From Parcubacteria group bacterium (lineage in GTDB: Bacteria > Patescibacteriota > Minisyncoccia > Moranbacterales > UBA2206): a stretch of DNA of 64,000 nt. The notes beneath the pieces were generated by a model that saw only the letters and a list, made by a program, of their open reading frames with translations, did no database searches and was not told where the DNA came from. Positions 3,147-38,876 of this stretch are shown in pieces; the first letter of the stretch is position 1, and the number at the start of each line of letters is the position of its first letter. The position numbers were made by a program, and so were the translations under genes. Location: contig JBAZYF010000001.1 in assembly GCA_041659505.1 (NCBI GenBank), forward strand, positions 101,475 to 165,474, in the 5' to 3' direction.

Positions 3147-3159
3147 TAGAAATTTTAAA

Positions 3160-4911
3160 TTATTCCACCGCTAGTCCGCTTGGCATATTCGGTGGAATCG
3201 CGTCAGATCCATGATATTCATAAGCACCAATGCTTGGAGGATTATTTATGGATTGTCCTAAATAATCCGTTGCCAGTCCCACATCGATTCCTGTCCATTT
3301 TGCGGGGGATGGAGCCGTTAGATTATAATCACCACCAGAAAAATTAAATAATAGAGGGTCAGAAACAGAACTATTAGCATCATACCCCAATGTGTTCCAT
3401 TGTAAAAATGTTTTACTTCCCCCATCATCTTCGATGGCCCATTCAGATGTGCCCCTATTAACATTGCTGGCCGGAAAGTACAAATTATAATTAATCACCG
3501 AGTTACTAACTGACCCTAAATACACAAGCCAATTTAAATTAGGGAGATTGTCGCTAACTACGATATTATTTTCAATGATATAGCTATCTAATTGGCCTAT
3601 TGAATATATGCCTATCCGACTGTCTGTTATGATCGTGTTATTATATATATAATTTTCTCCTCCTGGCGTAGCAATGGGAAAAATACTTAGATTACTAGTC
3701 CAACCATCAGAATTGCCGCCGTACAAAATATTGTAGTAAATTTTGTTATTATAAAAGGACGAGGCAAGTTGTTCAGGTGCTAATTGAATGGTATTTTGCA
3801 AAGTGTTGATATAATTTCTATAGATATTATTATTCGACCCATCGTGACAGGAACCGACATAATGAACAAATCCCCGGCACATCCCAGTAATATTATTTTC
3901 ATATACACTTGAGTTGTTTAAAGCTTGCGTCCCGATGCCTTCCGTATCTGTCCCACCTGACCAGCCCCAATATGTATAGGCGAAATCAATGTCATAATCA
4001 TTTCCGTATGTTCTCCAGATATAGGGGGTATTTTTGGCCTGAGAGCAATGAGTTATCGCATTAGATGCGATAGTTGCTCCCATAAAAGCACCCGCGTCAC
4101 CTTGAGTAGCAGTGTTAGCAGTTCCAAGCTCTATGCTATTTTGGACATAGCTAAAATTATTATCCGTGATACTAATTCCCGTGGATATGGCATTGTTGGT
4201 AAAAATCTGTACGCCTTGTATGATATCATCGAAATCAGAATTAGTAACTAGGATGTAATCATTATGAGAACCAGCAATGTTGGCAGTATAGACGCCATTG
4301 CCATATCTTCTAAAAGACAATCCATCAATAGTTATATAGCTATGAGAACCTAAGTTTATACCATACAAACGAGTATACTGAATAATGTGATCAGCCGGTA
4401 TCCCACTGGTTGGTTTATAGTAATTTTTCCATCCGCTTTCCCAGTATACATTTCCATAATTACATTCTGTGTCTCTGCCATATCTTAGTGGCACATCATC
4501 CTCATAGATTGCATTATTAGTCACCGCCGTTGTGCTATATACTCCAGCCACCGGATCATTGGCAGTCCACTCGGTAATTGTGACACTCCCATCCAGAATA
4601 GCCTTGCCTGTCCCATAAGAATTAATAATGATAGGATTCCCCTCTGTGCCAGAAGCGCCAACAGTAACTGTTCCATAATATGTCGTCCCACCTTTCTGCG
4701 AATAAGTATTGCCCGCCACCCACGATACTTCCGCCCAAGTTTTAAAAGGGCCACTAGCTCCGCAAGTTATAGTTGTACCATTGCCACTGCTTCCACAAGT
4801 TGGATCGATGTAGACCGTGGCAGCACTAGCCTTAGCACCAAAGCTAAAAAGGCCACAAAATATTAATAGACTTAGAAAAATTAATTTAGAATTTAGTAAT
4901 TTAGACTTCAT
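3160..4911 (-). CDS. Secreted beta-helix protein, array paralog P2 (583 aa), divergent subfamily.
   Basis: It has the same signal peptide style (…FGAKASA then ATVYIDPTCGSSGNGTT…PFKTWAEV). The cap and middle are different. It shares only the GAYEYHG motif and the terminal tail IPPNMPSGLAVE with the others. Confidence 0.8.
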   Translation of the reverse strand: MKSKLLNSKLIFLSLLIFCGLFSFGAKASAATVYIDPTCGSSGNGTTITCGASGPFKTWAEVSWVAGNTYSQKGGTTYYGTVTVGASGTEGNPIIINSYGTGKAILDGSVTITEWTANDPVAGVYSTTAVTNNAIYEDDVPLRYGRDTECNYGNVYWESGWKNYYKPTSGIPADHIIQYTRLYGINLGSHSYITIDGLSFRRYGNGVYTANIAGSHNDYILVTNSDFDDIIQGVQIFTNNAISTGISITDNNFSYVQNSIELGTANTATQGDAGAFMGATIASNAITHCSQAKNTPYIWRTYGNDYDIDFAYTYWGWSGGTDTEGIGTQALNNSSVYENNITGMCRGFVHYVGSCHDGSNNNIYRNYINTLQNTIQLAPEQLASSFYNNKIYYNILYGGNSDGWTSNLSIFPIATPGGENYIYNNTIITDSRIGIYSIGQLDSYIIENNIVVSDNLPNLNWLVYLGSVSNSVINYNLYFPASNVNRGTSEWAIEDDGGSKTFLQWNTLGYDANSSVSDPLLFNFSGGDYNLTAPSPAKWTGIDVGLATDYLGQSINNPPSIGAYEYHGSDAIPPNMPSGLAVE

Positions 4912-4938
4912 TTTAAATTTAGAATTTAGACTTTAAAA

Positions 4939-6438
4939 TTATTCTACTGCTAGTCCTGATGGAACTGTTGGTGGAGTTGTATCTGTTCCTTGGTATTCAT
5001 AGGCGCCGATGTCATAAGCTCCGACTGGACGTAAGAATGGTGAAGAGAGTCCGGCGCTGTTGATGGAAAGATTATAGGGACTGCCGAGGGTGGCGCCGGT
5101 GTTGATGGTGGGGCCTGATGTGGTGGCGAAATAGTTTGTATTAGGAAGCATATTGGTGCCGTAGGTTCCATTAAAGCCGGTGGGAAGGGTGCCTCCGGTA
5201 AAGTTGGGGTCGGTGGTTTGGGCGGTGGGTTCCCAGGTGAGGACATCGGATCGGTTATAATTTATATTTGTCACAACATGATCGGCAATATCACTTGAAG
5301 ATCTAAAAATTAGATTATTGGAATGAGTAAGTAGACCCAGATAATCATAAACTGCTTGATAGTTGTCAGAGCATGCAATATTATTCTTGAAATTTATTAT
5401 GGGAGTACCAATGGCCCAACGCAGATTAATAGCACTATAGACATCTGCAAAGAGTGTATTATTATAAAAATTCAAAACTGTTCCCGTTAGATCACCACCC
5501 AGATAAATTTCGTTTGAACCATTACTGTAAATAAGATTATTGTTAATACCACCAGTAACAGCCACACCAGCACTATCAACATCATACACGGTTATGCCAT
5601 GATCGCCATTATTATATATAATATTATATTTTATATCTAAACCGGTAGGGCTTCCATTTTCGCCAATAATAGATATCCCATTTGAGGCTGAATTGTAAAA
5701 AGATGAAAACTCTACTATAACATTTCTCGCGTCATTTTTAATCGCCAACCCAGATCCCCACGTTGATCCATCTTGCCCAGAGTCATGGCCCGAACAATTA
5801 CGTAATATTATATTGCTTTCAATGCCGCTTCCTCCACTATATACAACAAACGCCTCGTGTCCAGTATTATATACATTCGTATTAGATATTAAAACATCGC
5901 TAACGGCCGTACTAGGCTGTGCCGACACTCTGACACCATAAACATAATTACCCTCTGGGCAAATATTATCATGCACCTGACAATCATCAATTATTATATT
6001 TGATTTGTCAGCACCATAAATAGTAATACCATCAGTAATTTGGCTGTTCATATCGACATTAAAACTCCTAACCGTAACATTACTCTGCCCGATAAAAATC
6101 ACATAAGCTAGATTGCCAGTGGCTTTAAATGTAGCCCTCGTCCCGCTTCCATATATAGATCCATCATAAATTACACCTGCAGTAGCTACTAAAACAGGCG
6201 TCGTTGCGCTTGTCCACACATCTTGGCTACGAAAATATACAGTATCCCCGCTCGTCACTGTTGCCTCCACTTTGTCAATCGTCTCCCAAGCATTAGCATC
6301 ATCCAACCCGGAAAGAGAATCATTGCCTCCGTTTTTGACATAATAGGTGGCGGCGCTGGCTTTGGCACTCACGCCGAAAATTGCTAAAAATAAAATTGTT
6401 AGGAAAAAGATTTTTAGTTTTAAGTTTTGGTTTGGCAT
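4939..6438 (-). CDS. Secreted beta-helix protein, array paralog P3 (499 aa).
   Basis: N-terminus MPNQNLKLKIFFLTILFLAIFGVSAKASA then ATYYVKNGGNDSLSGLDDANAWETI. The C-terminal module is near-identical to P1 at the nucleotide level (about 170 nt). Confidence 0.85.
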   Translation of the reverse strand: MPNQNLKLKIFFLTILFLAIFGVSAKASAATYYVKNGGNDSLSGLDDANAWETIDKVEATVTSGDTVYFRSQDVWTSATTPVLVATAGVIYDGSIYGSGTRATFKATGNLAYVIFIGQSNVTVRSFNVDMNSQITDGITIYGADKSNIIIDDCQVHDNICPEGNYVYGVRVSAQPSTAVSDVLISNTNVYNTGHEAFVVYSGGSGIESNIILRNCSGHDSGQDGSTWGSGLAIKNDARNVIVEFSSFYNSASNGISIIGENGSPTGLDIKYNIIYNNGDHGITVYDVDSAGVAVTGGINNNLIYSNGSNEIYLGGDLTGTVLNFYNNTLFADVYSAINLRWAIGTPIINFKNNIACSDNYQAVYDYLGLLTHSNNLIFRSSSDIADHVVTNINYNRSDVLTWEPTAQTTDPNFTGGTLPTGFNGTYGTNMLPNTNYFATTSGPTINTGATLGSPYNLSINSAGLSSPFLRPVGAYDIGAYEYQGTDTTPPTVPSGLAVE

Positions 6439-6441
6439 TTT

Positions 6442-8046
6442 TTAATCTACACTTAGTCCACTCGGCGCATTCGGCGCAGTTATATCCGCTCCTTGATATT
6501 CATAAGCCCCAATATCATAAGCTCCAGCTAATCTAGCAATTGGATTGTCAGTACCGGCCGTGTTGATGTTGCCGTCATAGGGACTGCCAAGTGTGGCACC
6601 GTTGTTGATGGTGGGGCCGGATGTGGTGGCGAAATAATTGGTGTTGGGAAGCATGTCTGTGCCGTAGATGCCAGTGAAACCGGTAGGAAGCGTGCCGCCG
6701 TTAAATTGCGGGTCGGTGTTTTGGGCGGTGGGTTCCCAGGTATTGACCGCAGTTGAGGTATAGTCGGTAGTTTCCGTTTTAACTAACGTTCGACCAAGAG
6801 TTGTGGAATAAAATAAATTATTAGAATGATTCACAACTGGCGCTCCATCGATGAAAAGCTCTGTAAAATTACCGGCATACAAGATATTATTCTTAAAATT
6901 TACTTCTGCACCTTCTAGATTAGCCCACAAGCCTAAATTAACAAGACGAGCTGAATTCGTACAGGCCTTAGTCAGGGAATAAAAAGTATTATTGTAAATA
7001 TCAAAGACAGTGCCAGCCCCAAAAGCATCATCCGTGGCATTGCTACTTATGACAGAAAACTCAGCACAGTCCCCAATGCTCGGTTGACCATTTTCGTAAA
7101 GTAAGTTTCCATAGAAAGCACCTGACATAGTAAGTGCAGATGGGCTATATATGCGGATACCCGTATCAGCATTATTGTATATAACATTATATCTAACAAT
7201 CATGTTTATCGGGGCGGAAAAAACATTTTCCCCGCCTTCATAATCAGGCGAGGTTCTTACCAAAATTCCATCATGAATATTATCATACGCCCTGTTATAT
7301 TCGAGCGTAACATTTTTTGAATCATTAACGATAGAGAAACCTTCTAAATTATTGTGCGATATGCAATTTCTTACTAAAACAGTTTCGTTTTGGTTACCTG
7401 GCGTATTCCAACTAGCATAAACATCTATCCCGGTAGCATAGAGACAATCATATGTTTCAGTGTTTAATATTTGCACATTACTAGTTTTATGTCCTCCACT
7501 ATTGGAGACGATAATTCCATATCTGCCTGTATTGTGCACCGTACAATTATCAACGGTAATACCTGAGATGTCTTTGTCAGCAACATAGCCTATCCCGATA
7601 CCATCAAGCGAAGTTTGATCATTAGAATCTATATCAAACCCTCTAAAAATAATGTTACTTTCATTTAGGTCGGCAGTACTCCAATTGTTATACGAAGAGA
7701 CAGCATTTGATTTAAATTTAGCTCTTGTTCCTAATCCATAAGTAGCTCCGTCATAAATAACACCGCTAGTAGCATGCAACACGACTCCGGAAGTAATACT
7801 GGATTCCCACACATCTTGCGAACGAAAATAAACCATATCCCCGCTGGTCACTGTCGCCTCTACTTTAGCAATCGTCTCCCAAGCATTCGCATCATCCAAT
7901 CCCGAAAGACTATCATTGCCTCCGTTTTTGACGTAATAGGTGGCGGCACTGGCACTTGTACTCAAAACGAAAATCCCACTAAAGATAATTAGGCCAAAAA
8001 GGATTAAATTAAAATTTAGGAATCTAGTTTTCATTTCAAAATTCAA
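6442..8046 (-). CDS. Secreted beta-helix protein, array paralog P4 (534 aa).
   Basis: Same conserved cap. The C-terminal variant is ...DGNINTAGTDNPIARLAGAYDIGAYEYQGADITAPNAPSGLSVD, shared with P5. It is only 3 nt from the P3 start. Confidence 0.85.
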   Translation of the reverse strand: MNFEMKTRFLNFNLILFGLIIFSGIFVLSTSASAATYYVKNGGNDSLSGLDDANAWETIAKVEATVTSGDMVYFRSQDVWESSITSGVVLHATSGVIYDGATYGLGTRAKFKSNAVSSYNNWSTADLNESNIIFRGFDIDSNDQTSLDGIGIGYVADKDISGITVDNCTVHNTGRYGIIVSNSGGHKTSNVQILNTETYDCLYATGIDVYASWNTPGNQNETVLVRNCISHNNLEGFSIVNDSKNVTLEYNRAYDNIHDGILVRTSPDYEGGENVFSAPINMIVRYNVIYNNADTGIRIYSPSALTMSGAFYGNLLYENGQPSIGDCAEFSVISSNATDDAFGAGTVFDIYNNTFYSLTKACTNSARLVNLGLWANLEGAEVNFKNNILYAGNFTELFIDGAPVVNHSNNLFYSTTLGRTLVKTETTDYTSTAVNTWEPTAQNTDPQFNGGTLPTGFTGIYGTDMLPNTNYFATTSGPTINNGATLGSPYDGNINTAGTDNPIARLAGAYDIGAYEYQGADITAPNAPSGLSVD

Positions 8047-8062
8047 ATTAAAAAATTTTAAA

Positions 8063-9937
8063 TTATTCTACGGCCAGTCCGCTCGGCGCTCCGGGCGCGG
8101 TTGTATCCGCTCCTTGATATTCATAGGCGCCAATATCATAAGCTCCAGCTAATCTAGCAATTGGATTGTCAGTACCGGCCGTGTTGATGTTGCCGTCATA
8201 GGGACTGCCAAGTGTGGCACCGTTGTTGAGGGCATTGCCGGAAGTTATTTTGAAATAGTCGGTGTTGGGCACTATGTTGGCTCCATAAGTGCCGGAGAAT
8301 CCAGTTGGCAAAGTTCCGCCGGTAAATTGTGGGTCGGTGTTTTGGGCGGTGGGTTCCCAGACTGTAGTGACTGATCGATCATAGGTACTAGCCACCCACT
8401 TCTCACCAGCTACCGTATTCACATCTGAATACATATTGCCACCTTCATCGCGATAGACTTTGAGATAATTTGCTGAAACTTCATAGATATAAAATAAAGA
8501 ACCATTGAGATCGGGTGAGCTAAATCCTGTCCATTTCACAAAATTACCAACACTAAACAAACTGGTCCAATCACCTCCGCCAACTTTGGTAAAATACATA
8601 TAATCCCCCACGATGGATACCGTAACCACAGTCGAAGAAATTGGGATACTATCGTATGCAGCATCCCTAATGACCGCCAAAGAAGAACCGTCAGAACGAT
8701 AAATTAAATTGCTAGAATGAGTGAGCCAATGATGGCGATCATCTACGGCATAGCTATCGGAAGTATAAATTATATTATTTTTAAAATTAAATACTGGCGT
8801 TCCAAAAATATTTCCTCCGTATTCTGCAACAGCCATACCCGTGCCATAGCTACCATCATTATAAATAGTGTTATTATAAAAACTAAAAACGCTTGATGAG
8901 TAGTTAGCATTAGACACTGATATGCCAGGAGAGTTGTTATAAATAATATTTCCATAAAATGACCCACTCAAAATCTGACTATAATTATCTTGGATGAGAA
9001 TTCCTGAATCATTGTCATAAAGTTCATTATATCTGACAAGCATATTATTAGGTCCGCCATTACCCACCCCTCCATCGGGCGAAGTTCGTATGCTGATACC
9101 ATCTGCTTGTCCAAACAAGGCACAATATTCAACCGTCACATTATCAGAATTATTATTTATTGCTATGCCCATCCCAACACCCGTTCCAAGGACATCGGTC
9201 CCATTATCATGTACCTTACAATTCCTAATTAGCACCCTGTCAACACCATTTCCGGTGGAATTCCAACTGGGATATATAGCAATACCCTCATGATAATTAC
9301 TATAAACTTCGCTGTCTAGAATGCTGATGTCTGTGTTGATTATACCATCAGTCCGAGAACTTATTAATATTCCATACATCCATTCAGCTGATAAATTAGC
9401 TGGGTTTCCTAAATCAAAGACCTTGCAATTTTCAATAATAATATTTGAAATAGGTGCAATCAGACTTGCACTATAGCCAACAGATATTCCGGTCGTATTT
9501 ATTTGATTTCCATCAATGGAAAAATTATTAAATGAAACATCGCTTACGTTAATTTCAACCAACTCATTGGTAGCATCTCCAGTAAATCCAGTGCTGGCCT
9601 GCAATACAGCTCTTGTGCCACTGCCATAAGCAGAGCCATCGTAAGTTACGCCTTCTGTAGCTCTTAATAGTGGTACCACAGTTGATGAAGATGTCCACGT
9701 ATCCTGACTGCGAAAATAAACCGTATCCCCACTCGTCACGGAAGATTGAACTTTAGCAATCGTCTCCCAAGCATTGGCATCATCCAACCCCGAAAGGCTA
9801 TCATTGCCTCCGTTTTTGACGTAGTAGGTAGAGGCACTAGCTTTTGCACTCACACCAAAAACTGCACAAAATATAATTACCAGGAAAAAGATTTTTAGTT
9901 TTGAGTTTTGGATTTTGAGCTTCATTTTAAATTTCAA
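8063..9937 (-). CDS. Secreted beta-helix protein, array paralog P5 (624 aa), with an extra ~100 aa insert before the C-terminal module.
   Basis: Conserved cap. The insert YMYFTKVGGGDWTSLF...KWTGFSSPDLN is homologous to an insert in P8. The tail is APGAPSGLAVE. Confidence 0.85.
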   Translation of the reverse strand: MKFKMKLKIQNSKLKIFFLVIIFCAVFGVSAKASASTYYVKNGGNDSLSGLDDANAWETIAKVQSSVTSGDTVYFRSQDTWTSSSTVVPLLRATEGVTYDGSAYGSGTRAVLQASTGFTGDATNELVEINVSDVSFNNFSIDGNQINTTGISVGYSASLIAPISNIIIENCKVFDLGNPANLSAEWMYGILISSRTDGIINTDISILDSEVYSNYHEGIAIYPSWNSTGNGVDRVLIRNCKVHDNGTDVLGTGVGMGIAINNNSDNVTVEYCALFGQADGISIRTSPDGGVGNGGPNNMLVRYNELYDNDSGILIQDNYSQILSGSFYGNIIYNNSPGISVSNANYSSSVFSFYNNTIYNDGSYGTGMAVAEYGGNIFGTPVFNFKNNIIYTSDSYAVDDRHHWLTHSSNLIYRSDGSSLAVIRDAAYDSIPISSTVVTVSIVGDYMYFTKVGGGDWTSLFSVGNFVKWTGFSSPDLNGSLFYIYEVSANYLKVYRDEGGNMYSDVNTVAGEKWVASTYDRSVTTVWEPTAQNTDPQFTGGTLPTGFSGTYGANIVPNTDYFKITSGNALNNGATLGSPYDGNINTAGTDNPIARLAGAYDIGAYEYQGADTTAPGAPSGLAVE

Positions 9938-9945
9938 ATTGAAAA

Positions 9946-11538
9946 TTATTCCACCGCCAGTCCGCTCGGTGCCCCAGGTGCTGTTGTATCAGCTCCTTGG
10001 TATTCATAAGCCCCAATGTCATAAGCGCCGACTGGACGTAGAAAGGGAGAAGCTAATCCGGCACTATTGATGGAGCTATTGAAAGGACTGCCGAGGGTTG
10101 CGCCGGTATTGATAGTTGGCCCTGCGGTGGTGGCAAAATAATTAGTGTTGGGTAGCATATTTGATCCGTAGGTACCAGTAAATCCGGTGGGGAGGGTACC
10201 GCCGGTGAATTGCGGGTCGGTGTTTTGGGCGGTGGGTTCCCAATCGCCGATATTAGCACTTGTATATGTACTATTTTGAGTCCAAGCTAATGCACCCGCT
10301 GAAGGTCTGTAATAAATATTATTGGTATGTTGGGATGTTGTTAGTTGTGCGCCATAATCATAAAAACAACGAGCTGCCAAATCGCAATAATAAATATTAT
10401 TTCGGAACTCTATGCCGGAAGCATTACTACCTCCTTCATAAATTCCAGCGCAACCAAACATACTCGTGCTACCAGGAGAGTAAATTGTATTGTTATACAT
10501 CTTAATTGATTTGTCATGATAATCTATGCCACTCAATGCAATAGAAGCATCAATAAGTATATTGCCATAGAATGCGCCAGAACCATAAAAGTGAGGGAAG
10601 TCAAAATAACCGCTCGTAGAAAAACCAGTCCCCTGCATAAGATTATGCCTTATAATAAAATTATCCGGGTACTCATCTGGTCCGGTATAGTCTGGGCCGT
10701 AATTCAAAACAGCTATAGCTGAACCGCTTACAGTATTGTACTCAATGGTTATATTGTCCGAATCATTACCGATATCAATAGGATGAGTACTGCCACCAGC
10801 CTGCCCAACATCATACACGGTATTTCCTCGAACAAGCGCCATATTAACTCTATTGCCAGCGACACCCCAATTTGGATAAACAGCAATACCTTCATGCCCC
10901 GCTTCATGAACTATATTATTAGTCACCGTCACGTTGCTAGTTGTATGACTTCCGCGCGCTCCCACAAGAATTGCATAGTAGTAGGATGGATTAGGACTGT
11001 CTGTCGTGATGCCATTAATAATCTCACAATAATCCACAGTGATATCGGTAATGTCCCCCGACGGAGTTGGGCTAGTCCCGCCAATATACACACCACCGAG
11101 AGATAGCTCATTGCTATCAACCAAAAACCCCCTAAAAGTGACATTGCTTGTGTAAATTTGCACCACGCCATAACCAGCGACTCGGGACGTGGCTTGTAAT
11201 TTCGCTCTTGTTCCAGATCCGTATGTCGCCCCGTCATAAATCACCCCCTCCGTACAATTAAGCACGGGGTCTGCTCCTGTCCACGTATCCTGCGATCGAA
11301 AATACACAGTATCGCCACTCGTAGCAGAGGAGCTAACTTTGTCAATCGTCTCCCAAGCATTAGCATCATCCAACCCGGAAAGAGAATCATTGCCTCCGTT
11401 TTTGACATAATAGGTGGCGGCGCTGGCTTTGGCACTCAAGCCAAAAAAACCACAAAATATAATTACCAAAAAAATAATTTTGAATTTAAACTTGCTTGCC
11501 CCGGATGAGCAAAGCAATTTTTCGGAGTGTTTTTGCAT
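9946..11538 (-). CDS. Secreted beta-helix protein, array paralog P6. The ORF is open to 11607, but the start is most likely the Met of MQKHSEK... at 11538.
   Basis: ...KFKFKIIFLVIIFCGFFGLSAKASAATYYVKNGGNDSLSGLDDANAWETI... The conserved C-terminal module ends APGAPSGLAVE. The longer ORF would overlap the upstream ATPase stop at 11549. Confidence 0.8.
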   Translation of the reverse strand: MQKHSEKLLCSSGASKFKFKIIFLVIIFCGFFGLSAKASAATYYVKNGGNDSLSGLDDANAWETIDKVSSSATSGDTVYFRSQDTWTGADPVLNCTEGVIYDGATYGSGTRAKLQATSRVAGYGVVQIYTSNVTFRGFLVDSNELSLGGVYIGGTSPTPSGDITDITVDYCEIINGITTDSPNPSYYYAILVGARGSHTTSNVTVTNNIVHEAGHEGIAVYPNWGVAGNRVNMALVRGNTVYDVGQAGGSTHPIDIGNDSDNITIEYNTVSGSAIAVLNYGPDYTGPDEYPDNFIIRHNLMQGTGFSTSGYFDFPHFYGSGAFYGNILIDASIALSGIDYHDKSIKMYNNTIYSPGSTSMFGCAGIYEGGSNASGIEFRNNIYYCDLAARCFYDYGAQLTTSQHTNNIYYRPSAGALAWTQNSTYTSANIGDWEPTAQNTDPQFTGGTLPTGFTGTYGSNMLPNTNYFATTAGPTINTGATLGSPFNSSINSAGLASPFLRPVGAYDIGAYEYQGADTTAPGAPSGLAVE

Positions 11539-11548
11539 TTTTTTATTC

Positions 11549-12730
11549 TTACCGAATCTCCCCGCCCCAGATATAGTCGAAGAAGTTCGGCACAATCTGC
11601 CGACCAATCAGCCGGTACTTTTTCAGCCCGGCAGTCCGAGCTAAATTTTCCAGTTTCTTTTTGTCAGTTTCAATTGGTGTTTCTTTTACTTCCAATCCAA
11701 CTTTTTCATCAAGTACAAAATCAATCTCCCGACCGTTTTTGAGAGAATAATATTGCAACTTGCCCTGCTGGCGCAATTGATTGAAAATAGCATTTTCAAA
11801 TTTTGAACCGCCATTCAGATCCGCTAGGATTCCCGCCAGGCCATTGTCGCAAAAATAAATCTTTTGAGCTTTCACAATTTCTCGATCGAAACTTTTTGTA
11901 TAAATCGGGACTCTCTGGATTAAATAAGTTTTTTCGAAAAGATCCAAATAGCTGACTACTGTTGGACGAGAGAGATTGGAAAGACGTGCTAACTTGGAAT
12001 AATCCAGTTTTGTTCCAACGCGACCGGCTAACATTTTTAACAAATTATAGATATTCTGTTCGTTCCTAAAATCAGCCAAAAATTTAATGTCGATGTTGAG
12101 ATATGAGCTAATGATATCTCTAAGCAAATCCTTCTTTTCTTCCTCTGTATCGGCCAAAACCACTTCGGGAAAACCGCCAAATTCAACATAATTTTCATAG
12201 TAACTTCTTACTCGTTCATGCTCAATCGGATTGGCCTTTTTTTCCTGCCATTTCTCAGCTTTAAGATAGAAAACCTTATGAAAAACCAAATATTCTCCAA
12301 AATCCAAGGGATAGATTTCGAATATTTTTTTGCGCCCAGCCAGTGATTCACTGAAAAGATTTTTCAGATAATAGGAACTCGATCCGGTTACGATAAACTT
12401 CACATCAAAAGTATCGTATAAATATTTCAGAATACTAGCGATCGCTGGAAACATTTGAATTTCGTCTATTGCCAAATACATACGATCAGACATTGACAAC
12501 CCCTTGCTGGCAAGTTCCTTGAGAATGTTGTCATAATTTTTTTGATTAAACAGCGCCCGATTATCCACTCGCTCCAAATCGAGATAGAGTTTATTTTTTG
12601 AAGGAATGTCTTCCAGCAATTGATTGAGCAGTGTGGTCTTTCCTGTTCGGCGCATACCGGTAATCACGGTTATTTGCCTTGATTTGAGATGTTTTTTCAG
12701 TTCGGGATAAATTTTGCGCTCTAAAAACAT
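11549..12730 (-). CDS. AAA+ superfamily ATPase (COG1373/DUF4143 type) embedded in the beta-helix array.
   Basis: Walker A GMRRTGKTT, Walker B LAIDEIQ, and a sensor segment IVTGSSSY. The C-terminal half is of DUF4143 type. This is one of two such ATPases in the window; the other is at 33885-35126. Confidence 0.8.
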   Translation of the reverse strand: MFLERKIYPELKKHLKSRQITVITGMRRTGKTTLLNQLLEDIPSKNKLYLDLERVDNRALFNQKNYDNILKELASKGLSMSDRMYLAIDEIQMFPAIASILKYLYDTFDVKFIVTGSSSYYLKNLFSESLAGRKKIFEIYPLDFGEYLVFHKVFYLKAEKWQEKKANPIEHERVRSYYENYVEFGGFPEVVLADTEEEKKDLLRDIISSYLNIDIKFLADFRNEQNIYNLLKMLAGRVGTKLDYSKLARLSNLSRPTVVSYLDLFEKTYLIQRVPIYTKSFDREIVKAQKIYFCDNGLAGILADLNGGSKFENAIFNQLRQQGKLQYYSLKNGREIDFVLDEKVGLEVKETPIETDKKKLENLARTAGLKKYRLIGRQIVPNFFDYIWGGEIR

Positions 12731-12767
12731 AGATTTTTACATTAATAATTACTAAACTATATATATA

Positions 12768-12796
12768 ATATTACATTTAGTATCAATATTTGTCAA
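12768..12796 (-). promoter_or_regulatory. Sigma70-like promoter for the embedded ATPase. On the minus strand the -35 is TTGACA (12796-12791), the spacer is 17 nt, and the -10 is TAATAT (12773-12768).
   Basis: Hexamers were read on the reverse strand. The -10 lies ~38 nt upstream of the ATG at 12730. A 13 bp palindrome TGCTACTGTAGCA sits adjacent at 12797-12809. Confidence 0.45.
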
Positions 12797-12827
12797 CTGC
12801 TACTGTAGCATGGCTATTTTAAGCCTT

Positions 12828-14480
12828 TTATTCTACAGACAGTCCGCTAGGCGAAGCTGGCGGAGTTATCTCCGTGCCTTGATATTCATAGGCGCCGATA
12901 TCATATGTGCCAACTGGACGTAGAAAGGAAGTCTCCAGTCCGGCGCTGTTGATGGAACTGTTGTAGGGACTCCCAAGGGTGGCGCCAGTATCGAGAGCGT
13001 TGCCAGTTGTAATTTTAAAATAATCTGTATTAGGAAGCATATCGGTACCGTAGGTGCCGGTGAATCCGGTGGGGAGGGTGCCGCCAGTGAATGCGGGGTC
13101 GGTGGTTTGGGCGGTGGGTTCCCAAGTCAAAACGCCTGAACGGTTATAATTCACAGTGCTTGCAAATGTGGTAACGTGATTATCACTTGAACCGGATGAC
13201 CGAAAAATTAGATTGTTTGAATGTGTCAGGAAATTACCAGGGCAAGTAAAATCATCACTCCCACGACATTCTGCGATTCCTTCCCAGTTACTCGTGTAAA
13301 TCGCGTTATTTTTAAAATTAAACACAGGGATTGGAGTTCCTGCGATATCGCAGGAAGTATACTCGCAAGCCACAACTGGTTGCTTATACACGCACGGATT
13401 GTTAGTGCTGTAGATAGTATTATTATAATAACTGAATACTGATCCGCTATAATCACCATTAGGAATATCAATATCATGACATGCACCACTGCCACTCCAT
13501 CCAACACCAGTATCAAAGAATAAATTACCATAATATGCACCTGTCGAACCTTCCAGTCCCGCATCCCCGGTGCGATAAGACAACCCGAATCTATTATTAT
13601 AAATCATATTATAGCGCACAATTAGATTTGATACTGATTCGGAAGTGTCATAATTAGATGTTCCAACTATAATGCCCGTACCATTATCATGTATATTCGA
13701 GTACTCAATTGTAATATTATCTGATCTGTTCATGATATAAAAACCTTGGTCAAATCCAGAAGCATAAGTGATACCATCGCCACGACCAACATCGTATACT
13801 TCGCAATTTCTGACTGTTATTCTATTAATCCTACAGCCTGTCCTGTTCCAAGAATTATATAATGCAAACCCCTCATGACCCGTGCTGTACACCTTTGTAT
13901 CAGTAATTAATACATCGCTAACAACAACATCATTCGCGCTGATCCCTCCGACATAAAAACCATAAGCCCAATGGCCGGTAGGGACTAAGCTATTATGCAC
14001 ATCACAAGAATCAACAACTATATTACCAAAACTCACAGGAGCTCCCTGTCCGATGGCAAAAATGCATAATATCTGATCATTCCCATCTACATCAAATCCA
14101 CGAAAAACAACATTAGATACGTTTATTTTAACAACCGCCATATTATCAGCGGATGAGCTTGTTGCTCTCAGCGTGGCTTTTGCGCCAGAGCCATATTCAT
14201 TGCCAATATATGTTACCCCGGACACCGCAGTTAAAACAGTTGCTGCCCCTGTCCACGTATCCTGCGATCGAAAATACACAGTATCGCCACTCGTAGCAGA
14301 AGAGCTAACTTTAGCAATCGTCGCCCAAGCATTGGCATCATCCAATCCAGAAAAAGAATCATTACCTCCGTTTTTGACATAGTAGGTGGCAGCCTCAGAA
14401 TTCTTGACCATGCCAAAGAAGCTGCAAAATATAATTAAGTTAAAAAAGATTGCATTAAAAATTTTAAATTTAATTTTCAT
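12828..14480 (-). CDS. Secreted beta-helix protein, array paralog P7 (550 aa).
   Basis: MKIKFKIFNAIFFNLIIFCSFFGMVKNSEA then ATYYVKNGGNDSFSGLDDANAWATI. The C-terminal module ends TPPASPSGLSVE. Confidence 0.85.
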   Translation of the reverse strand: MKIKFKIFNAIFFNLIIFCSFFGMVKNSEAATYYVKNGGNDSFSGLDDANAWATIAKVSSSATSGDTVYFRSQDTWTGAATVLTAVSGVTYIGNEYGSGAKATLRATSSSADNMAVVKINVSNVVFRGFDVDGNDQILCIFAIGQGAPVSFGNIVVDSCDVHNSLVPTGHWAYGFYVGGISANDVVVSDVLITDTKVYSTGHEGFALYNSWNRTGCRINRITVRNCEVYDVGRGDGITYASGFDQGFYIMNRSDNITIEYSNIHDNGTGIIVGTSNYDTSESVSNLIVRYNMIYNNRFGLSYRTGDAGLEGSTGAYYGNLFFDTGVGWSGSGACHDIDIPNGDYSGSVFSYYNNTIYSTNNPCVYKQPVVACEYTSCDIAGTPIPVFNFKNNAIYTSNWEGIAECRGSDDFTCPGNFLTHSNNLIFRSSGSSDNHVTTFASTVNYNRSGVLTWEPTAQTTDPAFTGGTLPTGFTGTYGTDMLPNTDYFKITTGNALDTGATLGSPYNSSINSAGLETSFLRPVGTYDIGAYEYQGTEITPPASPSGLSVE

Positions 14481-14507
14481 TTCAAATTAAAAATTTTAAA
14501 TTTCAAA

Positions 14508-16424
14508 TTATTCCACTGCCAGTCCACCAGGCACACTGGGTGGAACCGTGTCCGCTCCTTGCAATTCATAGGCTCCAATATCATAGGCTCCGCCTTGGGG
14601 ACGCAAGAATGGCGAAGCCAGTCCGGCGCTGTTGATGGAGCTGTTAAATGGACTGCCGAGAGTCGCTCCAGTATCAATGGTTGGTCCTGTGGTGGTGGCG
14701 AAATAATTAGTGTTGGGTAGCAGATTGATGCCGTAGGTGCCGGTGAAACCGGTGGGAAGGGTGCCGACGGTGAACTCAGGGTCGGTGTTTTGGGCGGTTG
14801 GTTCCCAGGTAGCGACGGCTGAACGATTAAAATTAGTCATCGTCCCCTTTACTCCAGTCACAATATTAATATCCGTATAGGGTATTGAAGTTTTTGCAAC
14901 TCTCAGCTGATTTTCCGTCACCGCATCAACCATAAACACAATATTATTAAGTGCCGGCGTGGTAAAGCCAGACCATTTAAAAAAGTTATAATGTGTAAAA
15001 ATAGTTGTCCAGTCCGTACCGCCTGATTTGGTAAAATATGTATATGTTGCATCGTTAGAAACAGTTACTTCCGTCTCTGGAATAACCTCCGCGTAGCTCA
15101 TATTAGAAATGGCAGCCCCAGTCGATCCTGATGCTCTGTAAATAAGATTATTGGAGTGAGCTGTAATTTTAGTAAGATGATCATAAACTCCAATAGCATT
15201 ATTACTATAAATAATATTATTTTTAAAATTAACTATAGGGTAGTTCGCCATAGCGTTAGAGTATTGGAAAAAAGACACAATCCCATAACTTGTGGCTGAT
15301 ACGGTATTGTAAATAGTGTTGTTATAAATATCAAACGTACTTGCTTCGTATTCGCCATTACTAACTTCCAAATCGATGCCGGCATTATTGTAAAATATGT
15401 TGCTATAAATATTAGCATTAAGTGAGTGCACCAGGCCTATCTGCGTAGAAAAACCACTTCCCGTATTTTCATAAATCAGATTATTTCTAATTATCAAATT
15501 ATCTGGTGATCCGGCCGCAGCTTCCGGCGATGTCCGCTCCCAGATTCCCGTCATGCCATTATCACGGATACTATTAAATTCAACAGTGACATTATCTGCA
15601 TTGTTAGCGACAAGCACTCCTACTCCGCCATTGCCATATGTGCCGTTAGCATTGGTATAGGTCGGCCTAGTACCGCAATCATGAACATTATTTCCCCGCA
15701 CTGACACACCATCAACTCTCGGGTTCGTTCTTACCCATGCTGTGTAAATAGCAACACCTTCATGATAGGTATAGGCAACTTCATTATTGATTATATTAAA
15801 ATTAGTATGTGTGATATTATCATCGCCACCAGCAGCATAAAGTCCATATTGCCAGTTAGGTTGCCAAGTTTCATTAAGAATATTAGGATCAGTAATGCTG
15901 TGATTACCTCCGACAAGATTCGGATTGCCTGTGTGATGAATATAACAGTCCTTAACTGTAATATTGTCGATGGCCTTTCCGGCTCCATATCCAACATAAA
16001 GGCCACCACCGGTCCCCATTGAACTACCATCTACCTCAAATCCCTTGAAAACCACATCACTTTCATTGATAACGACTAAGCGATGCGTGTCCGCCTCAAG
16101 GCCAGTTATACCCTTTAATTCTGCCTTGACGCCAGCGGATGGCCACTCATTTCCAATATAAGAAACCCCTCTCTCGGCAGTCAAAAATGGGGCCGTTGAA
16201 AATTCCCAAATATCGCCGGAATTAAAATACACCATGTCCCCGCTAGTGACTGTCAATTGAACTTTGGCAATCGTCTCCCAAGCGCTGGCATCATCCAATC
16301 CAGAAAGACTATCATTGCCTCCGTTTTTGACGTAGTAAGTCGCAGCCTCTGAATTTCTTGCCATTCCAAAGATTCCGCAAAACAAAATTAGAAAGACGAA
16401 AATTTTTAATTTAGTTATTTTCAT
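14508..16424 (-). CDS. Secreted beta-helix protein, array paralog P8 (638 aa), with the same insert domain as P5.
   Basis: MKITKLKIFVFLILFCGIFGMARNSEA then ATYYVKNGGNDSLSGLDDASAWETI. The last ~80 nt are near-identical to P1 (...RPQGGAYDIGAYELQGADTVPPSVPGGLAVE). Confidence 0.85.
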   Translation of the reverse strand: MKITKLKIFVFLILFCGIFGMARNSEAATYYVKNGGNDSLSGLDDASAWETIAKVQLTVTSGDMVYFNSGDIWEFSTAPFLTAERGVSYIGNEWPSAGVKAELKGITGLEADTHRLVVINESDVVFKGFEVDGSSMGTGGGLYVGYGAGKAIDNITVKDCYIHHTGNPNLVGGNHSITDPNILNETWQPNWQYGLYAAGGDDNITHTNFNIINNEVAYTYHEGVAIYTAWVRTNPRVDGVSVRGNNVHDCGTRPTYTNANGTYGNGGVGVLVANNADNVTVEFNSIRDNGMTGIWERTSPEAAAGSPDNLIIRNNLIYENTGSGFSTQIGLVHSLNANIYSNIFYNNAGIDLEVSNGEYEASTFDIYNNTIYNTVSATSYGIVSFFQYSNAMANYPIVNFKNNIIYSNNAIGVYDHLTKITAHSNNLIYRASGSTGAAISNMSYAEVIPETEVTVSNDATYTYFTKSGGTDWTTIFTHYNFFKWSGFTTPALNNIVFMVDAVTENQLRVAKTSIPYTDINIVTGVKGTMTNFNRSAVATWEPTAQNTDPEFTVGTLPTGFTGTYGINLLPNTNYFATTTGPTIDTGATLGSPFNSSINSAGLASPFLRPQGGAYDIGAYELQGADTVPPSVPGGLAVE

Positions 16425-16671
16425 TTTTAATACAACGCACCCTAAAAAAACTTCCTGGGAATATCCTTATTTTAGCATGAAACAGGTGAAAAATAAACCT
16501 AGACTATTCTACCCACAAAGAAAAAAATTAGTATAATTTCAAAATCCTAATTTCCAGCGTCAAATTAATTTCAAATGCCAAATTTCAAATTAAACAGCTT
16601 CTTTTGTAATTTGAGCTTTAGATTTGGTTGGAAATTTAACATTTTGATTTTGAAATTAGCCCTTAGCATTA

Positions 16672-16710
16672 CAAAAAAAGACGCCACTTGCAAGCGTCCC
16701 TTTTGTTTTT
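16672..16710 (-). terminator. Rho-independent terminator downstream of groEL. The hairpin GACGC-N9-GCGTC is flanked by A/T runs and looks bidirectional.
   Basis: AAAAAAAGACGCCACTTGCAAGCGTCCCTTTTGTTTTTT lies directly after the groEL stop at 16739. Confidence 0.5.
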
Positions 16711-16738
16711 TATTTCTTGCTTCCTGTTTCTTTTATTC

Positions 16739-19640: not shown

Positions 19641-22448
19641 CTAAAGGTATTTCCCCGTCCAACTTTTTTTGCATTTTTTCAGTTCCGCTGGTGAGCCTTC
19701 AAACACAATTTCTCCTCCGCCCGATCCGCCTTCCGGACCCAGATCGATCACCCAATCAGAATTGCGGATCACATCCACATTATGTTCAACGACTAAAACT
19801 GTATTACCTTTGTCGACCAGTGCGTCCAAAACACCCAGGAGTTTGCGGATATCTTCAAAGTGCAGTCCAATCGTTGGTTCATCTAAGATGTACAAAGTTT
19901 TTCCCGTTGCTCGACGTGCCAGCTCCGTGGCCAATTTGATCCGCTGCGCCTCACCACCAGAAAGATCAACGGCGCTTTGTCCTAATTTTAAATAACCCAA
20001 GCCGACTTTTTCCAGCGTGGATAATTTATCTGTCACTAGTTTGGAGTTTTTGAAAAACGCCAGAGCATAGCTCACGCTCATATCAAGTACTTGCGCAATA
20101 TTCACTCCGCGGTATTCAATCTCAAGAGTCCGCTGATTATACTTCGCGCCATTACACGTTTCACACGGCACATAGACATCCGGCAAGAGGTGCATCTCGA
20201 TTTTTTTCTTGCCCTCACCTTGGCAATCCTCACAACGTCCGCCCTTCATATTGAAACTGAAACGGCTAGCATCATACCCACGCGTCTGTGCCTCCTCTGT
20301 TTCGGCAAACAGCTCACGGATGAGCGAAAAAACTCCGGTGTAAGTTGCGGCGTTCGAGCGCGGGGTGCGACCGATCGGTGCTTGATTGATACTGATCACC
20401 TTGTCGATGTTTTCCATTCCGCTAATTTTTTTGTGCTGTCCAGGAGCTTCTTTGGTATTGAAAAAATGTTTAGCCAAAGCTTTGGACAAAATGTCTGAAA
20501 CTAAAGTTGATTTGCCCGAACCGGAAACGCCGGTAAGCGAAATAAATTTTCCCAAAGGTAAGCTCACATCAATATCTTTCAAATTATGCTCTGTCGCTCC
20601 CTGAATCTTGATAAATTTGCCCGAACCCTTGCGCGCTTTTTTCTTATCCCCGACCTGTCTTTTTCCGTTCAGGTACTGCGCGGTCACGGTTTTAGATTTG
20701 AGCAGCGTCGCGAGGTCACCAGAAAAAATCACCTCGCCACCTTCTTCGCCAGCCCCTGGCCCCATATCAATAATCCAATCTGCTGCCCGAATGATCTGTT
20801 CGTCGTGCTCCACGGTAATCAAAGAATTACCCGCTTCACGCAATTCTTCCATCGTCGCAATTAATTTTTCCGTATCACGATTATGCAATCCGATCGATGG
20901 TTCGTCTAAGACATAGGTGATGCCGGAGAGTTCTGAGCCAATCTGCGTCGCCAAGCGAATCCGCTGTCCTTCTCCGCCAGAAATCGAATTAGCCGAGCGC
21001 GAAAGTGAGAGATAACCCAATCCCACATTTTGGAGTGCGGCACTGCGCGCTTTCATTTCCTTGACCAATGGTAAAATAATATTTTTCTTCGCTGAGCTGA
21101 TGTTGATTTTTTCCAGCGCTTCCAAGAATTGCGAAAAATCAACCAGTGGCATATCCACAACCTGATCAATTGATTTGTCCGCCACGAGCACTGAAAGATA
21201 CTCCCCGCGCAGACGCTTGCCCAAACAAAGCGGGCAAACTTTCTCAATCATATATTTTTCAATCTCGCTTCTCAGATAGTTGGAATTCAGTTCTTCATAT
21301 TTCTTTTTCATCGTCGGGATGACGCCTTCGAAAATGATCTTCGGGTCATTGGATCCATAGAGCACGATATTCAAATGTTCCCGACTGATTTTTTTCACCG
21401 GAATATCGACAGAAAATCCATATTTCTCTCCCAGCATTTGCAAAATGTTATTCCCGCTCGTCAGCACGCTTGAGCGTCCGCCGGATTTGTTCCACGACAA
21501 AATCGCACCTTCAGCCAGTGTGAGATTTTTATTAGGAATGAGCAAATCTTCATCGATTTCCTTAATCACACCCAATCCTGAACAATGTTGGCAGGCGCCC
21601 TCGGGACTATTGAAAGAAAAATGTTTCGGTGTAATGTCCGCCACTTCAAAAAAACATTTCTTGCAGACAAAATCACGGTTATAAATTTTTTCTGTCTCAT
21701 TATCTTTAACAACCACGGCAGCACCTTTGCCCAATTTAAAAGCCGTTTCAATCGAATCTAAGATCCGTTCTCGATCAGGATTTTTCTTATTAAGCACGAT
21801 GCGATCAATTACAATTTCTGCGCTACACGTTTCGTCTGCTTCCAATTCGTTCTGCGACAGTGCCTCGGTCAGCGACACGATTTTTCCTCGAAATCGAATC
21901 CGCGCATAACCCAATTGACTGACACTTTTGAGCCGCTCTTTCAAGCTCTGATCTTTACCATTCAGCTTAGCGAGAATTGCAATATTAGTCTTTTCCGGCG
22001 AATCAAGAATGTCCTCCAATACTTCGGCATTAGAAATTTTTTCCAACGGCGTCTTGCAGTGCGGACAATGCGGCGCTCCGGCCTTAGCATAAAGCACACG
22101 CAGATAATCATAGATCTCTGTGAGCGTCCCCACCGTCGAACGCGGACTGCGCGCGATACTTTTTTGATCGATCGAGATAGTTGGCGTCAGATTTTCAATC
22201 TTGTCCACATCCGGTTTAGCCGACACATCCAGAAACTGTGTCGCATAACTCGACATGCCCTCGAGATAGCGCCGATTGCCTTCCGCATAAATCGCATCAA
22301 ACGCCAAAGAAGATTTTCCACTGCCAGAGAGTCCGGTAATGACCACCAGCTTATCCCGCGGAATTTCCACATCAATATTTTTCAAATTATTCACCCGCGC
22401 TCCGCGGACAATGATTTTGCTCCGATCTTTGGGTTTGTTTTTTGACAT
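19641..22448 (-). CDS. uvrA: Excinuclease ABC subunit A (UvrA), canonical length.
   Basis: 935 aa. Two ABC ATPase modules ([20 protein letters not shown]), zinc-finger Cys pairs, and the C-terminal LSGGE signature. Confidence 0.95.
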
Positions 22449-26082: not shown

Positions 26083-26143
26083 AATCAGTGAAATCACTTT
26101 AATCAGTGAAAATCAGTGGTTCTGATGTTTAGTGGTTCAGGCA
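26083..26143. repeat. CACTGATT-rich repeat (family 6) immediately 3' of uvrA2. It contains AATCAGTGGTTCTGAT.
   Basis: AAAATCAGTGAAATCACTTTAATCAGTGAAAATCAGTGGTTCTGATGTTTAGTGGTTCAGG. A related element with terminal inverted repeats is at 39925-40026. Confidence 0.6.
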
Positions 26144-29100: not shown

Positions 29101-29281
29101 AGCTCGACAGACTTTCCAGATATCGCCGTTGTCCCTCGGCAAAAATGGTATCAAAAGCCAGCGTACTCTTGCCTGAGCCGGAAATTCCGGTGAAAACAAT
29201 AAATTTATTCCGCGGTAGATCGAGATTGATATTCTTGAGATTGTGCTCTCTCGCTCCGCGAATGATTAATTCGTCTTGCAT
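26129..29281 (-). CDS. uvrA: UvrA paralog (UvrA2), 1050 aa. It is a complete two-module UvrA with several G+C-rich insertions.
   Basis: [65 protein letters not shown]... plus a second module [11 protein letters not shown] and the LSGGEAQR signature. It is ~110 aa longer than the copy at 19641-22448 because of three insert segments. Confidence 0.9.
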   Translation of the reverse strand: MQDELIIRGAREHNLKNINLDLPRNKFIVFTGISGSGKSTLAFDTIFAEGQRRYLESLSSYARQFLGQMGKPEVDSIEGLSPAISIDQKAASHNPRSTVGTVTEIHDYLRLLYAKIGVAHCPICNREIVKLSTDEIVDRILNICTTGKDKKSKKDDCAIEIFSPIVRERKGEYSTLLEEMFRRGFSTAFVNGKKYALDEKIGTRVKLERYKKHNIDILVDKVEINSENISRIFEGVEQALKLSKGIVKIKLMTGDGKNKTAKKTIRGLKSEKLEKPELSSRSRELSSGPSFDGEMIFNQNFSCPVHEVDFPELEPRLFSFNSPFGACPSCEGLGVKKEIDPDLVVPDMNKTIAEGGIMPWSYKKNNWQGTILRAVTNFYDIRDNVRLRDLSDDDFNTLLYGTSDITDITLEEGAPARNASRSDAGGDEIPVTLRSKTGSSWKYNMHWRGVVGYLQDRYLKTDSEGVRTDIEKYMSQNPCSTCLGSRYKKEALLVTVGDPARNATLLSGTENSDGYSKKIKESTSSEEHSVAGGKNIHEVSTISVRETLDFFQKINFTKREELIASRILKEIQNRLGFLQDVGLGYLSLGRAANTLAGGESQRIRLASQIGSQLVGVLYILDEPSIGLHARDNAKLLATLLQLRDVGNTLIVVEHDEETMRAADYLVDIGPGAGKHGGEIVAEGTPLEVMKSEESLTAKYLRGDLSIEAPAYRRSLKSKKTLVVRGAREHNLQNITVSFPLKVLTCVTGVSGSGKSTLVEDILYKALSAKIMRSLERPGKHSEIVGDHYLNKVIMIDQSPIGRTPRSNPATYTGLFTAIRELFAETRDAKAKGYSPGRFSFNVKGGRCDNCQGDGYNKIEMQFMPDVYLPCDVCGGKRYNSETLKVKYRDKNIADVLALTISEAREFFANFHDIADKLKVLEDVGLGYIQLGQSATTLSGGEAQRIKLSTELSRRATGDTLYILDEPTTGLHFDDIKKLLGILNRLVDAGNTVIVIEHNLDVIKTADWIIDLGPEGGKEGGKVIVSGTPEEVAKWDKESWTGKYLKECLNH
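28419..28456. repeat. Perfect 38 bp palindrome CCAGAGCTAAGCTCTCGG|CTCCGAGAGCTTAGCTCTGG, inserted in frame in uvrA2.
   Basis: Read directly. It encodes KPELSSRSRELSSGP within a uvrA2-specific insert. Related GC-rich palindromes (CCCGCCCGC...GCGGGCGGG at ~28004-28046 and ~27770-27800) lie in two further inserts, both of which encode PARNA motifs. Confidence 0.7.
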
Positions 29282-35126: not shown

Positions 35127-35190
35127 ATTTTTTACTAAAATAAGGTTATACCTGCTTTTAGTATATACTTTTATCTGGCATACGTCAAGT

Positions 35191-36812: not shown

Positions 36813-36815
<3 letters not shown>
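36769..36815. terminator. Convergent terminator hairpin ATATGCCCG-N19-CGGGCATAT plus a T run, between the hypothetical gene and the uvrB stop.
   Basis: Read directly. TATTTTTTT follows the stem. Confidence 0.55.

Positions 36816-38876
<2,061 letters not shown>

Follow-up and report, generated by a model that had tools for sequence, protein, structure and literature searches.

A probable stand-alone ATPase-nuclease cassette of the PDC-S01 family in a beta-helix gene array of a Parcubacteria genome

We describe an ATPase gene, ATP1, that lies within an array of beta-helix genes in a 64-kb stretch of DNA (the window) from a Parcubacteria (Patescibacteria) metagenome-assembled genome (MAG). ATP1 is a member of a known, very common and functionally uncharacterised family, PDC-S01, and a candidate anti-phage gene. 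Domain, fold and residue conservation, a promoter kept among orthologs in varied genomic contexts and the signature of an insertion point to a stand-alone ATPase-nuclease cassette inserted in the array, with genetic conflict as its most likely role, a reading to which we assign a probability of roughly 60 %. The conserved promoter and operator-like repeat, the cassette boundaries and the evidence of insertion are the new elements of this work; a functional link between the ATPase and the array is not supported.

Background

The DUF4143/COG1373 family is listed in the PD-(D/E)XK superfamily with function unknown (PMC3424549). PDC-S01 joins an ATPase to a PD-(D/E)XK domain; it ranks fourth in frequency among prokaryotic defence candidates and awaits validation (PMC12988326), in agreement with a preliminary description of this DNA that called the ATPase family functionally undefined. 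Such candidates (PDCs) were nominated through their embedding within BREX, DISARM, type I restriction-modification (RM) and Hma loci (bioRxiv 10.1101/2024.01.29.577857). The window proteins resemble PDC-S01 (COG1373 'predicted AAA+ ATPase') in their domains, in their status as single genes and in their typical embedding between other genes, and no feature sets them apart from the family. In the PDC-S01 literature surveyed, we found no description of a conserved promoter/operator or of cassette-like insertion.

Data and methods

ATP1 denotes the window gene at 11549-12730 (-), ATP2 its paralog at 33885-35126 (-), and BH1-BH8 the genes of the beta-helix array. The synteny set comprised 11 ATP1-type contexts (the window, L002, L003, L008, L010, L011/12, L050/51, L052/53, L054, L055 and L056), three ATP2-type contexts and 37 metagenome loci anchored on beta-helix genes. 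A scan of genome collections returned six loci only, and the synteny sample is therefore small. For the beta-helix side of the comparison, hidden Markov models (HMM) were run on these 37 beta-helix loci and on L060. Residue conservation was read from a 32-sequence alignment (A3), and the beta-helix proteins were compared in alignment A1.

Results

An ATPase-nuclease with intact catalytic residues

The gene and its conserved catalytic elements are the following:

11549-12730, minus strand: ATP1, 393-aa AAA_14 + DUF4143 ATPase-nuclease of the PADLOC PDC-S01 family (open reading frame, Pfam, PADLOC and full-length model)
12632-12658, minus strand: Walker A, G25-M-R-R-T-G-K-T-T33 (columns invariant in the 32-sequence alignment)
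12461-12466, minus strand: Walker B, D89-E90 (columns invariant in the same alignment)
11684-11797, minus strand: PD-(D/E)xK nuclease core, with E312 (11795-11797), D337 (11720-11722) and E347-x-K349 (11684-11692)

The earlier assignment of a DUF4143/COG1373-type ATPase within the array is borne out by Pfam, which places AAA_14 at residues 18-148 (5.7e-33; 114.1 bits vs a gathering cutoff of 27) and, C-terminal to the ATPase, DUF4143 at residues 214-349 (2.8e-29; 102.3 bits vs a cutoff of 28.1). The PADLOC PDC-S01 HMMs match both window proteins over their full length (ATP1, E 1.8e-67; ATP2, E 1.4e-85), and no NCBIfam model scores at or above its cutoff for these proteins. Invariant across the 32 sequences are G25xRxxGKT (G25, R27, G30, K31, T32), D89, E90, a GRK motif (132-134), E312, D337 and K349, with E347 retained in at least 90 % of them. 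The catalytic residues are strongly kept across thousands of homologs, which argues for selection on activity.

Sequence searches with the C-terminal domain gave weak results, with nothing significant in a sequence-only search of the PDB and, in Pfam at E up to 10, only a weak Mrr_cat match for ATP2 (E 0.059), so that a fold search was needed. The AlphaFold model of full-length ATP1 is confident (pLDDT 90.3, pTM 0.89) and comprises an ATPase of STAND/Orc1-like type, followed by a winged helix and, at the C-terminus, a PD-(D/E)xK nuclease whose catalytic residues are intact. In the C-terminal part of DUF4143, the alpha-beta-beta-beta-alpha-beta core and the acidic/lysine catalytic residues (E...D...ExK) are present, and the NB-ARC-like NTPase, helical domain and winged helix are all found as in STAND NTPases. 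The first ~260 residues of the model resemble STAND NTPases such as plant NLRs, CED-4, Avs5 and Apaf-1, and also DNA-bound Orc1/Cdc6, MuB and TnsC, the top Foldseek matches being Orc1/Cdc6 on origin DNA.

ATP1 nonetheless departs from each of the characterised systems with which it can be compared. It is much smaller (393 aa) than the STAND NTPases of immunity (Avs/AVAST, NLR, Apaf-1/CED-4), carries its effector at the C-terminus and is missing their repeat sensor (TPR, LRR, WD40), the chain ending after the nuclease domain at residue 393 (Pfam). Relative to CRISPR Can2/Card1 and Cas4/NucS-type PD-(D/E)xK proteins, it is without a CARF/SAVED sensor or a CRISPR context, and its controlling module is the ATPase. 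The archaeal Walker-type ATPases Sso1545 (PDB 2fna) and PAB2304 (PDB 2qen), of Pfam ATPase_2 with DUF234, are only ~20 % identical and differ from ATP1 in Pfam family and C-terminal module. Unlike Orc1/Cdc6 initiators, which are expected at origins, neither ATPase gene sits at an origin, because the cumulative GC skew runs monotonically through the two loci, and there are two divergent copies whose location varies between relatives.

A conserved promoter and a candidate operator

Two elements were located upstream of the ATPase gene:

12768-12796, minus strand: ATP1 promoter, -35 TTGACA (12796-12791), 17-nt spacer, -10 TAATAT (12773-12768) (site scan and ortholog conservation)
12750-12782, minus strand: inverted repeat TACTAAA-N19-TTTAGTA, its arms on either side of the -10 box and of the likely transcription start, a putative operator (pattern scan; also palindrome I1)

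The promoter is present as first described, at 12796-12768. Viewed in a single sequence it is not distinctive, since promoter-like sites number 102 in 20 kb vs 56 expected and ~23 of them match at least 10/12. Among orthologs with 58-78 % protein identity, however, the exact combination of TTGACA, 17-nt spacer and TAnnnT recurs in 10 of the 11 independent ATP1-type contexts, and it is this retention of the -35/17/-10 arrangement across independent contexts that makes the promoter convincing and leads us, on comparative grounds, to regard it as real. The spacer itself is largely conserved (consensus TTGACAAATAGTATTACTAAATGTAAAGT). Mean pairwise identity among the orthologs reaches 67 % in the 29-nt promoter block, compared with 29 % over the 30 nt that precede it and 35 % for the third codon positions within the ATPase gene. 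The conserved stretch runs from the -35 box to the stop codon, with an abrupt loss of similarity upstream of the -35 box and unrelated 3′ flanks.

The conserved spacer holds a TAGTA-N-TACTA-like palindrome, with a second related site downstream of the -10 box; in the window the two sites make up the inverted repeat at 12750-12782. The pattern TACTAAA-N(5-30)-TTTAGTA has exactly two matches in the window (0.02 expected), both immediately upstream of an ATPase gene (ATP1 and ATP2), and distant paralogs have other palindromes in the equivalent position (TATACA-type in L006/L007, TACTAAAAT-type in L038 and TGCAT-type in L029). The inverted repeat may be an operator for autoregulation, bound by the protein's own winged helix; this is the simplest reading because these ATPases have no other consistently linked gene. 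As the left half-site falls within the -10 region, which is not transcribed, an RNA hairpin is unlikely. A known RNA element upstream of ATP1 was also considered and discarded: at gathering scores, the sole Rfam match in the window is a tmRNA gene at 57100-57529 (+; 148.6 bits). The ortholog in L003 has a duplicated operator block and is without TTGACA.

Insertion between two beta-helix genes

The insert and the genes on either side of it are:

12828-14480, minus strand: BH7, beta-helix gene upstream of the insert (context)
11491-12827, minus strand: inserted cassette, approximate limits, holding the promoter, the ATPase gene and ~55 nt (junctions from the L060 comparison)
9946-11538, minus strand: BH6, beta-helix gene downstream of ATP1, 530 aa in its annotated form (P0241; context)

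The array consists of eight co-oriented genes for secreted beta-helix proteins, with ATP1 between BH7 and BH6. Gaps of 97 nt to BH7 and 10 nt to BH6 flank the ATPase gene, and the remaining array junctions measure 3-27 nt; to the extent that the beta-helix genes lie this close together, the earlier remark that most other genes lack clear promoters holds. The five-gene array of L060 carries the closest ortholog of BH6 (86 % identity). In that array the 28 nt before the ortholog's start codon are an ordinary AT-rich inter-gene spacer, not the 3′ end of an ATPase gene, and homology to the window resumes only near 11487. Approximately 1.34 kb of the window (roughly 11491-12827) therefore reads as an insertion. 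The BH6 start codon (11538-11536) and its first ~15 residues (MQKHSEKLLCSSGAS, 11491-11538) are without counterpart in the L060 ortholog, and appear from this alignment to derive from the inserted DNA.

No terminator-like site was found between the ATP1 stop codon and BH6. As ATP1 is co-oriented with the array, its transcription probably reads through into BH6-BH1, and with a gap of only 10 nt its promoter is able to drive these genes. The signal peptides of BH7 and BH8 end in ...NSEAATYYV (12828-16424) and those of BH1-BH6 in ...KASAATYYV (1509-11538), marking BH7/BH8 as a distinct subgroup and hence placing the ATPase insert at the seam between two sub-arrays.

Other properties of the array were recorded. 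The beta-helix proteins have a near-identical signal peptide followed by ATYYVKNGGNDSLSGLDDANAWETI, and all eight (1509-16424, alignment A1) share the terminal motif ...GAYDIGAYEYQGxDxxPPxxPSGLAVE-stop, ending at the point where an Fn3-like domain or linker would normally start; BH2 (3160-4911) is the outlier of the array, at 26 % identity. An AT-rich TTTGAAATTTAAAATT-type repeat makes up both the inter-gene spacers and the 5′ ends of genes in the array (14481-14507, 16425-16738 and other junctions), and it also occupies the 314-nt region upstream of BH8. Similar sequence lies before the ATPase cassettes in L050 and L052.

Contexts of orthologs

Outside the window, the ATP1-type contexts contain the following genes:

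L002, L003: MAG contigs without a beta-helix gene
L008: PGK and enolase genes, hypotheticals
L010: giant LamG proteins
L011/12: AbiEii, LamG, Fic and beta-helix genes
L050/51: three tandem paralogs adjoining a Schlafen-like ATPase
L052/53: methyltransferases, AbiEii, Bro-N, a second paralog, PIF1
L054: glycosyltransferases
L055: ArgRS, ParD/PemK, ABC transporter
L056: collagen-like protein, and a large serine recombinase 39 nt downstream

No partner gene recurs across the 14 ortholog contexts (11 ATP1-type, 3 ATP2-type). Beta-helix neighbours occur in two of the 11 ATP1-type contexts only (the window and L011/12), and ATP1 orthologs at 60-78 % identity occupy loci unrelated to beta-helix arrays. 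Conversely, the HMM scan showed the ATPase to be absent from three arrays of at least four tandem beta-helix genes: L014 (5-6 genes), L025 (4) and L060 (5). Many further contexts involve cell-surface genes (LamG giants, pilins, glycosyltransferases, a collagen-like protein), a distribution that fits variable surface-gene islands tolerating or attracting insertions.

Genes for AbiEii, Fic, a Schlafen-like ATPase or ParD/PemK lie near the ATPase in four of the 11 contexts. Three tandem AAA_14 + DUF4143 paralogs adjoin a Schlafen-like gene (SLFN_AlbA_2 + HATPase_c_4) in L050/L051 (5300-9700) and in L005, with repeated intergenic segments (...TTCTTGCAGTTAAAATACGGC...). Orthologs at 51-62 % identity lie on contigs binned as Armatimonadota, Flavobacteriales and Bacteroidales (L002, L003, L004); the copy in L004 has two in-frame stops and that in L005 is split. 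Possible causes of these features of L002-L005 are transfer between phyla, errors of binning and decay of the copies. Within the window, a 279-aa Bro-N protein at 47298-48137 (-) matches another PADLOC candidate, PDC-S13 (E 4.7e-112); it sits between RNase J (48304-50121) and a Trp/Tyr-type tRNA synthetase (46127-47293), and is another single gene embedded among housekeeping genes.

A second, divergent copy

The second copy, its promoter and the DNA-repair genes of the same 20 kb are:

33885-35126, minus strand: ATP2, 413-aa paralog of a different subfamily (start in agreement with the public annotation, P0121)
35133-35188, minus strand: ATP2 promoter, TTGACG (35188-35183), 17-nt spacer, TATACT (35165-35160), with inverted repeat TACTAAAA...TTTTAGTA (35133-35163)
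19641-22448 and 26129-29281, minus strand: UvrA paralogs of 935 aa and 1050 aa
23892-25262: UvrC
31304-31963: LexA-like S24 peptidase
36813-38876: UvrB

ATP2 scores 102.5 bits for AAA_14 and 127.3 bits for DUF4143 (Pfam), and is 31 % identical to ATP1 over 391 aa (E 7e-46). The second divergent copy previously noted beside NUDIX and DUF523 genes is thereby recovered, with a 2-thiouracil desulfurase/DUF523-type gene on one side and a NUDIX gene on the other; two UvrA paralogs, UvrB, UvrC, a LexA-like peptidase and a HIT protein are encoded in the surrounding region. A recent duplication of the two window copies was considered and rejected, as their mutual identity is 31 %, against 78-89 % for the orthologs that each has elsewhere, those of ATP2 reaching 80-89 %. 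The ATP2 promoter element begins 2 nt past the stop codon of the upstream gene and is kept, together with its inverted repeat, before 80 % orthologs in L057 and L058.

These orthologs occupy two different positions in type IV pilus clusters. In L058 an 81 %-identical ortholog lies between a pilin-like gene and the prepilin peptidase gene; in L057 the corresponding junction is unoccupied, and the ATPase is found at a distance of 3 kb, beside DNA ligase. The two ATPases are 81 % identical, vs only 64-69 % for the shared syntenic pilus genes.

Signs of mobility

Long direct repeats flank the ATPase cassette in two loci:

L008, 9860-9939 and 11203-11282: direct repeat of 80 nt, its first ~56 nt a duplicated terminator
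L052, 7813-7887 and 9966-10040: direct repeat of 75 nt, 87 % identity

A linked transposase and terminal inverted repeats, as in Tn7/Mu-type transposition modules (TnsC/MuB ATPase with TnsA-type nuclease), were looked for and not found. Transposon-like ends in the window were likewise discarded as a candidate, there being no terminal inverted repeats and only an 8-nt AT-rich direct repeat (GAATAAAA) that we deemed not meaningful. A viral origin was rejected after an alignment-based scan and an exact promoter-motif scan of 2.9 million viral contigs gave no match.

Discussion

The interpretation we favour is that of a stand-alone cassette acting in genetic conflict. The N-terminal STAND/Orc1-like P-loop ATPase, with its helical lid, would serve as a nucleotide-dependent switch or oligomerisation module, the winged helix would bind DNA, and the C-terminal PD-(D/E)xK nuclease, with its catalytic tetrad intact, would be the effector. 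The gene would travel as a compact cassette bounded by its own -35 box and its stop codon, and the winged helix, by occupying TACTAAA half-site inverted repeats that overlap the promoter, may keep expression low through autoregulation. In the window, a cassette of ~1.34 kb would have entered the spacer between two beta-helix genes, and would not be a component of the array. ATP-controlled cleavage of nucleic acids could then provide anti-phage or anti-plasmid defence, or serve a selfish element. Family, domains, catalytic residues, fold, conservation of promoter and operator, variability of context and the signature of insertion are shown by the data above; the binder of the operator, the trigger, the substrate and a benefit to the host are parts of this scheme that we infer.

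Several observations weigh against this interpretation. The upstream end of L060 extends for only 28 nt, so that the empty site is deduced from little sequence. A PDC-S01 representative assayed in E. coli B against T4, T5 and T7 was not among the four protective candidates (bioRxiv 10.1101/2024.09.26.614923), the literature shows no anti-phage activity for the PDC-S01 family, and no recognised defence system adjoins ATP1 or ATP2 in the window. In addition, ATPases of this family adjoin beta-helix genes in three further independent loci. In L011/12 only 2 nt lie between the end of a beta-helix C-terminal remnant and the -35 box, and 28 nt separate the stop codon from a 555-aa beta-helix gene; in L038 the end of a beta-helix gene is separated by 12 nt from the promoter of a 27 %-identical ATPase; and in L029/34 three beta-helix genes, the first two of 900 aa and 907 aa, alternate with two ATPase genes placed between them. 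Such recurring adjacency is not predicted by pure chance insertion, unless surface-protein islands are preferred landing sites. Some adjacency is nevertheless expected because these small genomes are rich in members of both families, and the two of ~19 unbiased ATPase genes that have a beta-helix neighbour are too small a sample to show enrichment over chance.

Tandem duplication was rejected as the source of the alternation in L029/34, given that the two ATPases of L029 are 32 % identical. The 900-aa and 907-aa beta-helix proteins of L029 (1-11804) and L034 have their N- and C-termini in common, and the 3′ ends are identical (GCCTGGGTTTTGA). L029 also has an ATPase_2/DUF234 protein at the contig start and TGCAT-type palindromes before its ATPases.

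An alternative that we consider unlikely is that of a purely selfish, self-regulated mobile cassette, which spreads horizontally, settles between genes of like orientation and brings its host no benefit. The embedding behind the nomination of PDC-S01 would in that case reflect insertion behaviour, not immunity, and PDCs were indeed defined by embedding (bioRxiv 10.1101/2024.01.29.577857). A compact cassette with non-conserved flanks, embedded in operons as varied as a beta-helix array, a pilus cluster, glycosyltransferases and housekeeping genes, speaks for this alternative, as do an ATPase that is more conserved than its syntenic neighbours and has shifted position (L057/L058), the flanking repeats of L008 and L052, the serine recombinase of L056, the presence of several copies per genome (tandem ones included), the possible decayed copies of L004 and L005 and the close relatives in MAGs of other phyla. 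These features must be set against the lack of a consistently linked transposase or integrase, of terminal inverted repeats and of regular target-site duplications (only the 8-nt AT-rich repeat in the window), the lack of a relative in 2.9 million viral contigs and the strong conservation of catalytic residues across thousands of homologs, which implies selection on activity.

It is still less probable that the ATPase-nuclease is a functional partner of the array, making DNA breaks or remodelling DNA for recombination between cassettes with conserved ends, or controlling downstream expression. The preliminary description had raised a functional link of this kind, proposing to check whether an ATPase is always embedded in such arrays. 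It is not: adjacency does recur in four independent loci when the window is counted, and the ATP1 promoter can drive BH6-BH1, but L014, L025 and L060, the last being the array of the closest relative, are without the ATPase, nine of 11 ATP1-type and all ATP2-type contexts are without a beta-helix neighbour, and ATP2 resides in the same genome among DNA-repair and housekeeping genes. Arrays without the ATPase and orthologs at unrelated loci thus speak against the link, and the abundance of both families makes some adjacency unremarkable.

A housekeeping factor for DNA transactions or regulation, such as an Orc1/Cdc6-like site-specific binder in replication, repair or transcription with a nuclease used in repair, would accord with the best Foldseek matches, with a specific inverted-repeat site at the gene's own promoter and with the location of ATP2 in a cluster of uvr and LexA-like genes, but seems very improbable when synteny is not kept even among 80 % orthologs, copy number is variable and copies may be tandem, neither locus is at an origin by GC skew and the operator motif occurs at two ATPase promoters only in 64 kb.

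Conclusions

Our analysis makes PDC-S01 testable in three respects: through a conserved promoter and operator-like repeat common to paralogs that are 31 % identical, through a compact cassette boundary that runs from -35 box to stop codon, and through cases of a gene clearly dropped into otherwise conserved operons. For the array, it removes the tempting but unsupported idea of the ATPase as array machinery; the insert appears to have given BH6 a new start, and it may at present drive the expression of BH6-BH1. The conserved promoter and operator-like repeat, the cassette boundaries and the evidence of insertion also raise the question of whether embedding in the PDC-S01 family reflects defence or the insertion behaviour of the cassette. 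More speculatively, and with considerable doubt, PDC-S01 genes at large might be autonomous, self-repressed cassettes that move between genomes and insert precisely between co-oriented genes, often in cell-surface clusters (beta-helix arrays, LamG giant proteins, pilus operons and glycosyltransferase clusters). Were this so, the promoter of each cassette would read into downstream host genes, frequent embedding would be a property of the cassette itself, and the recurring beta-helix/ATPase junctions would point either to a favoured site of insertion or to genuine interplay with the variation of surface proteins.

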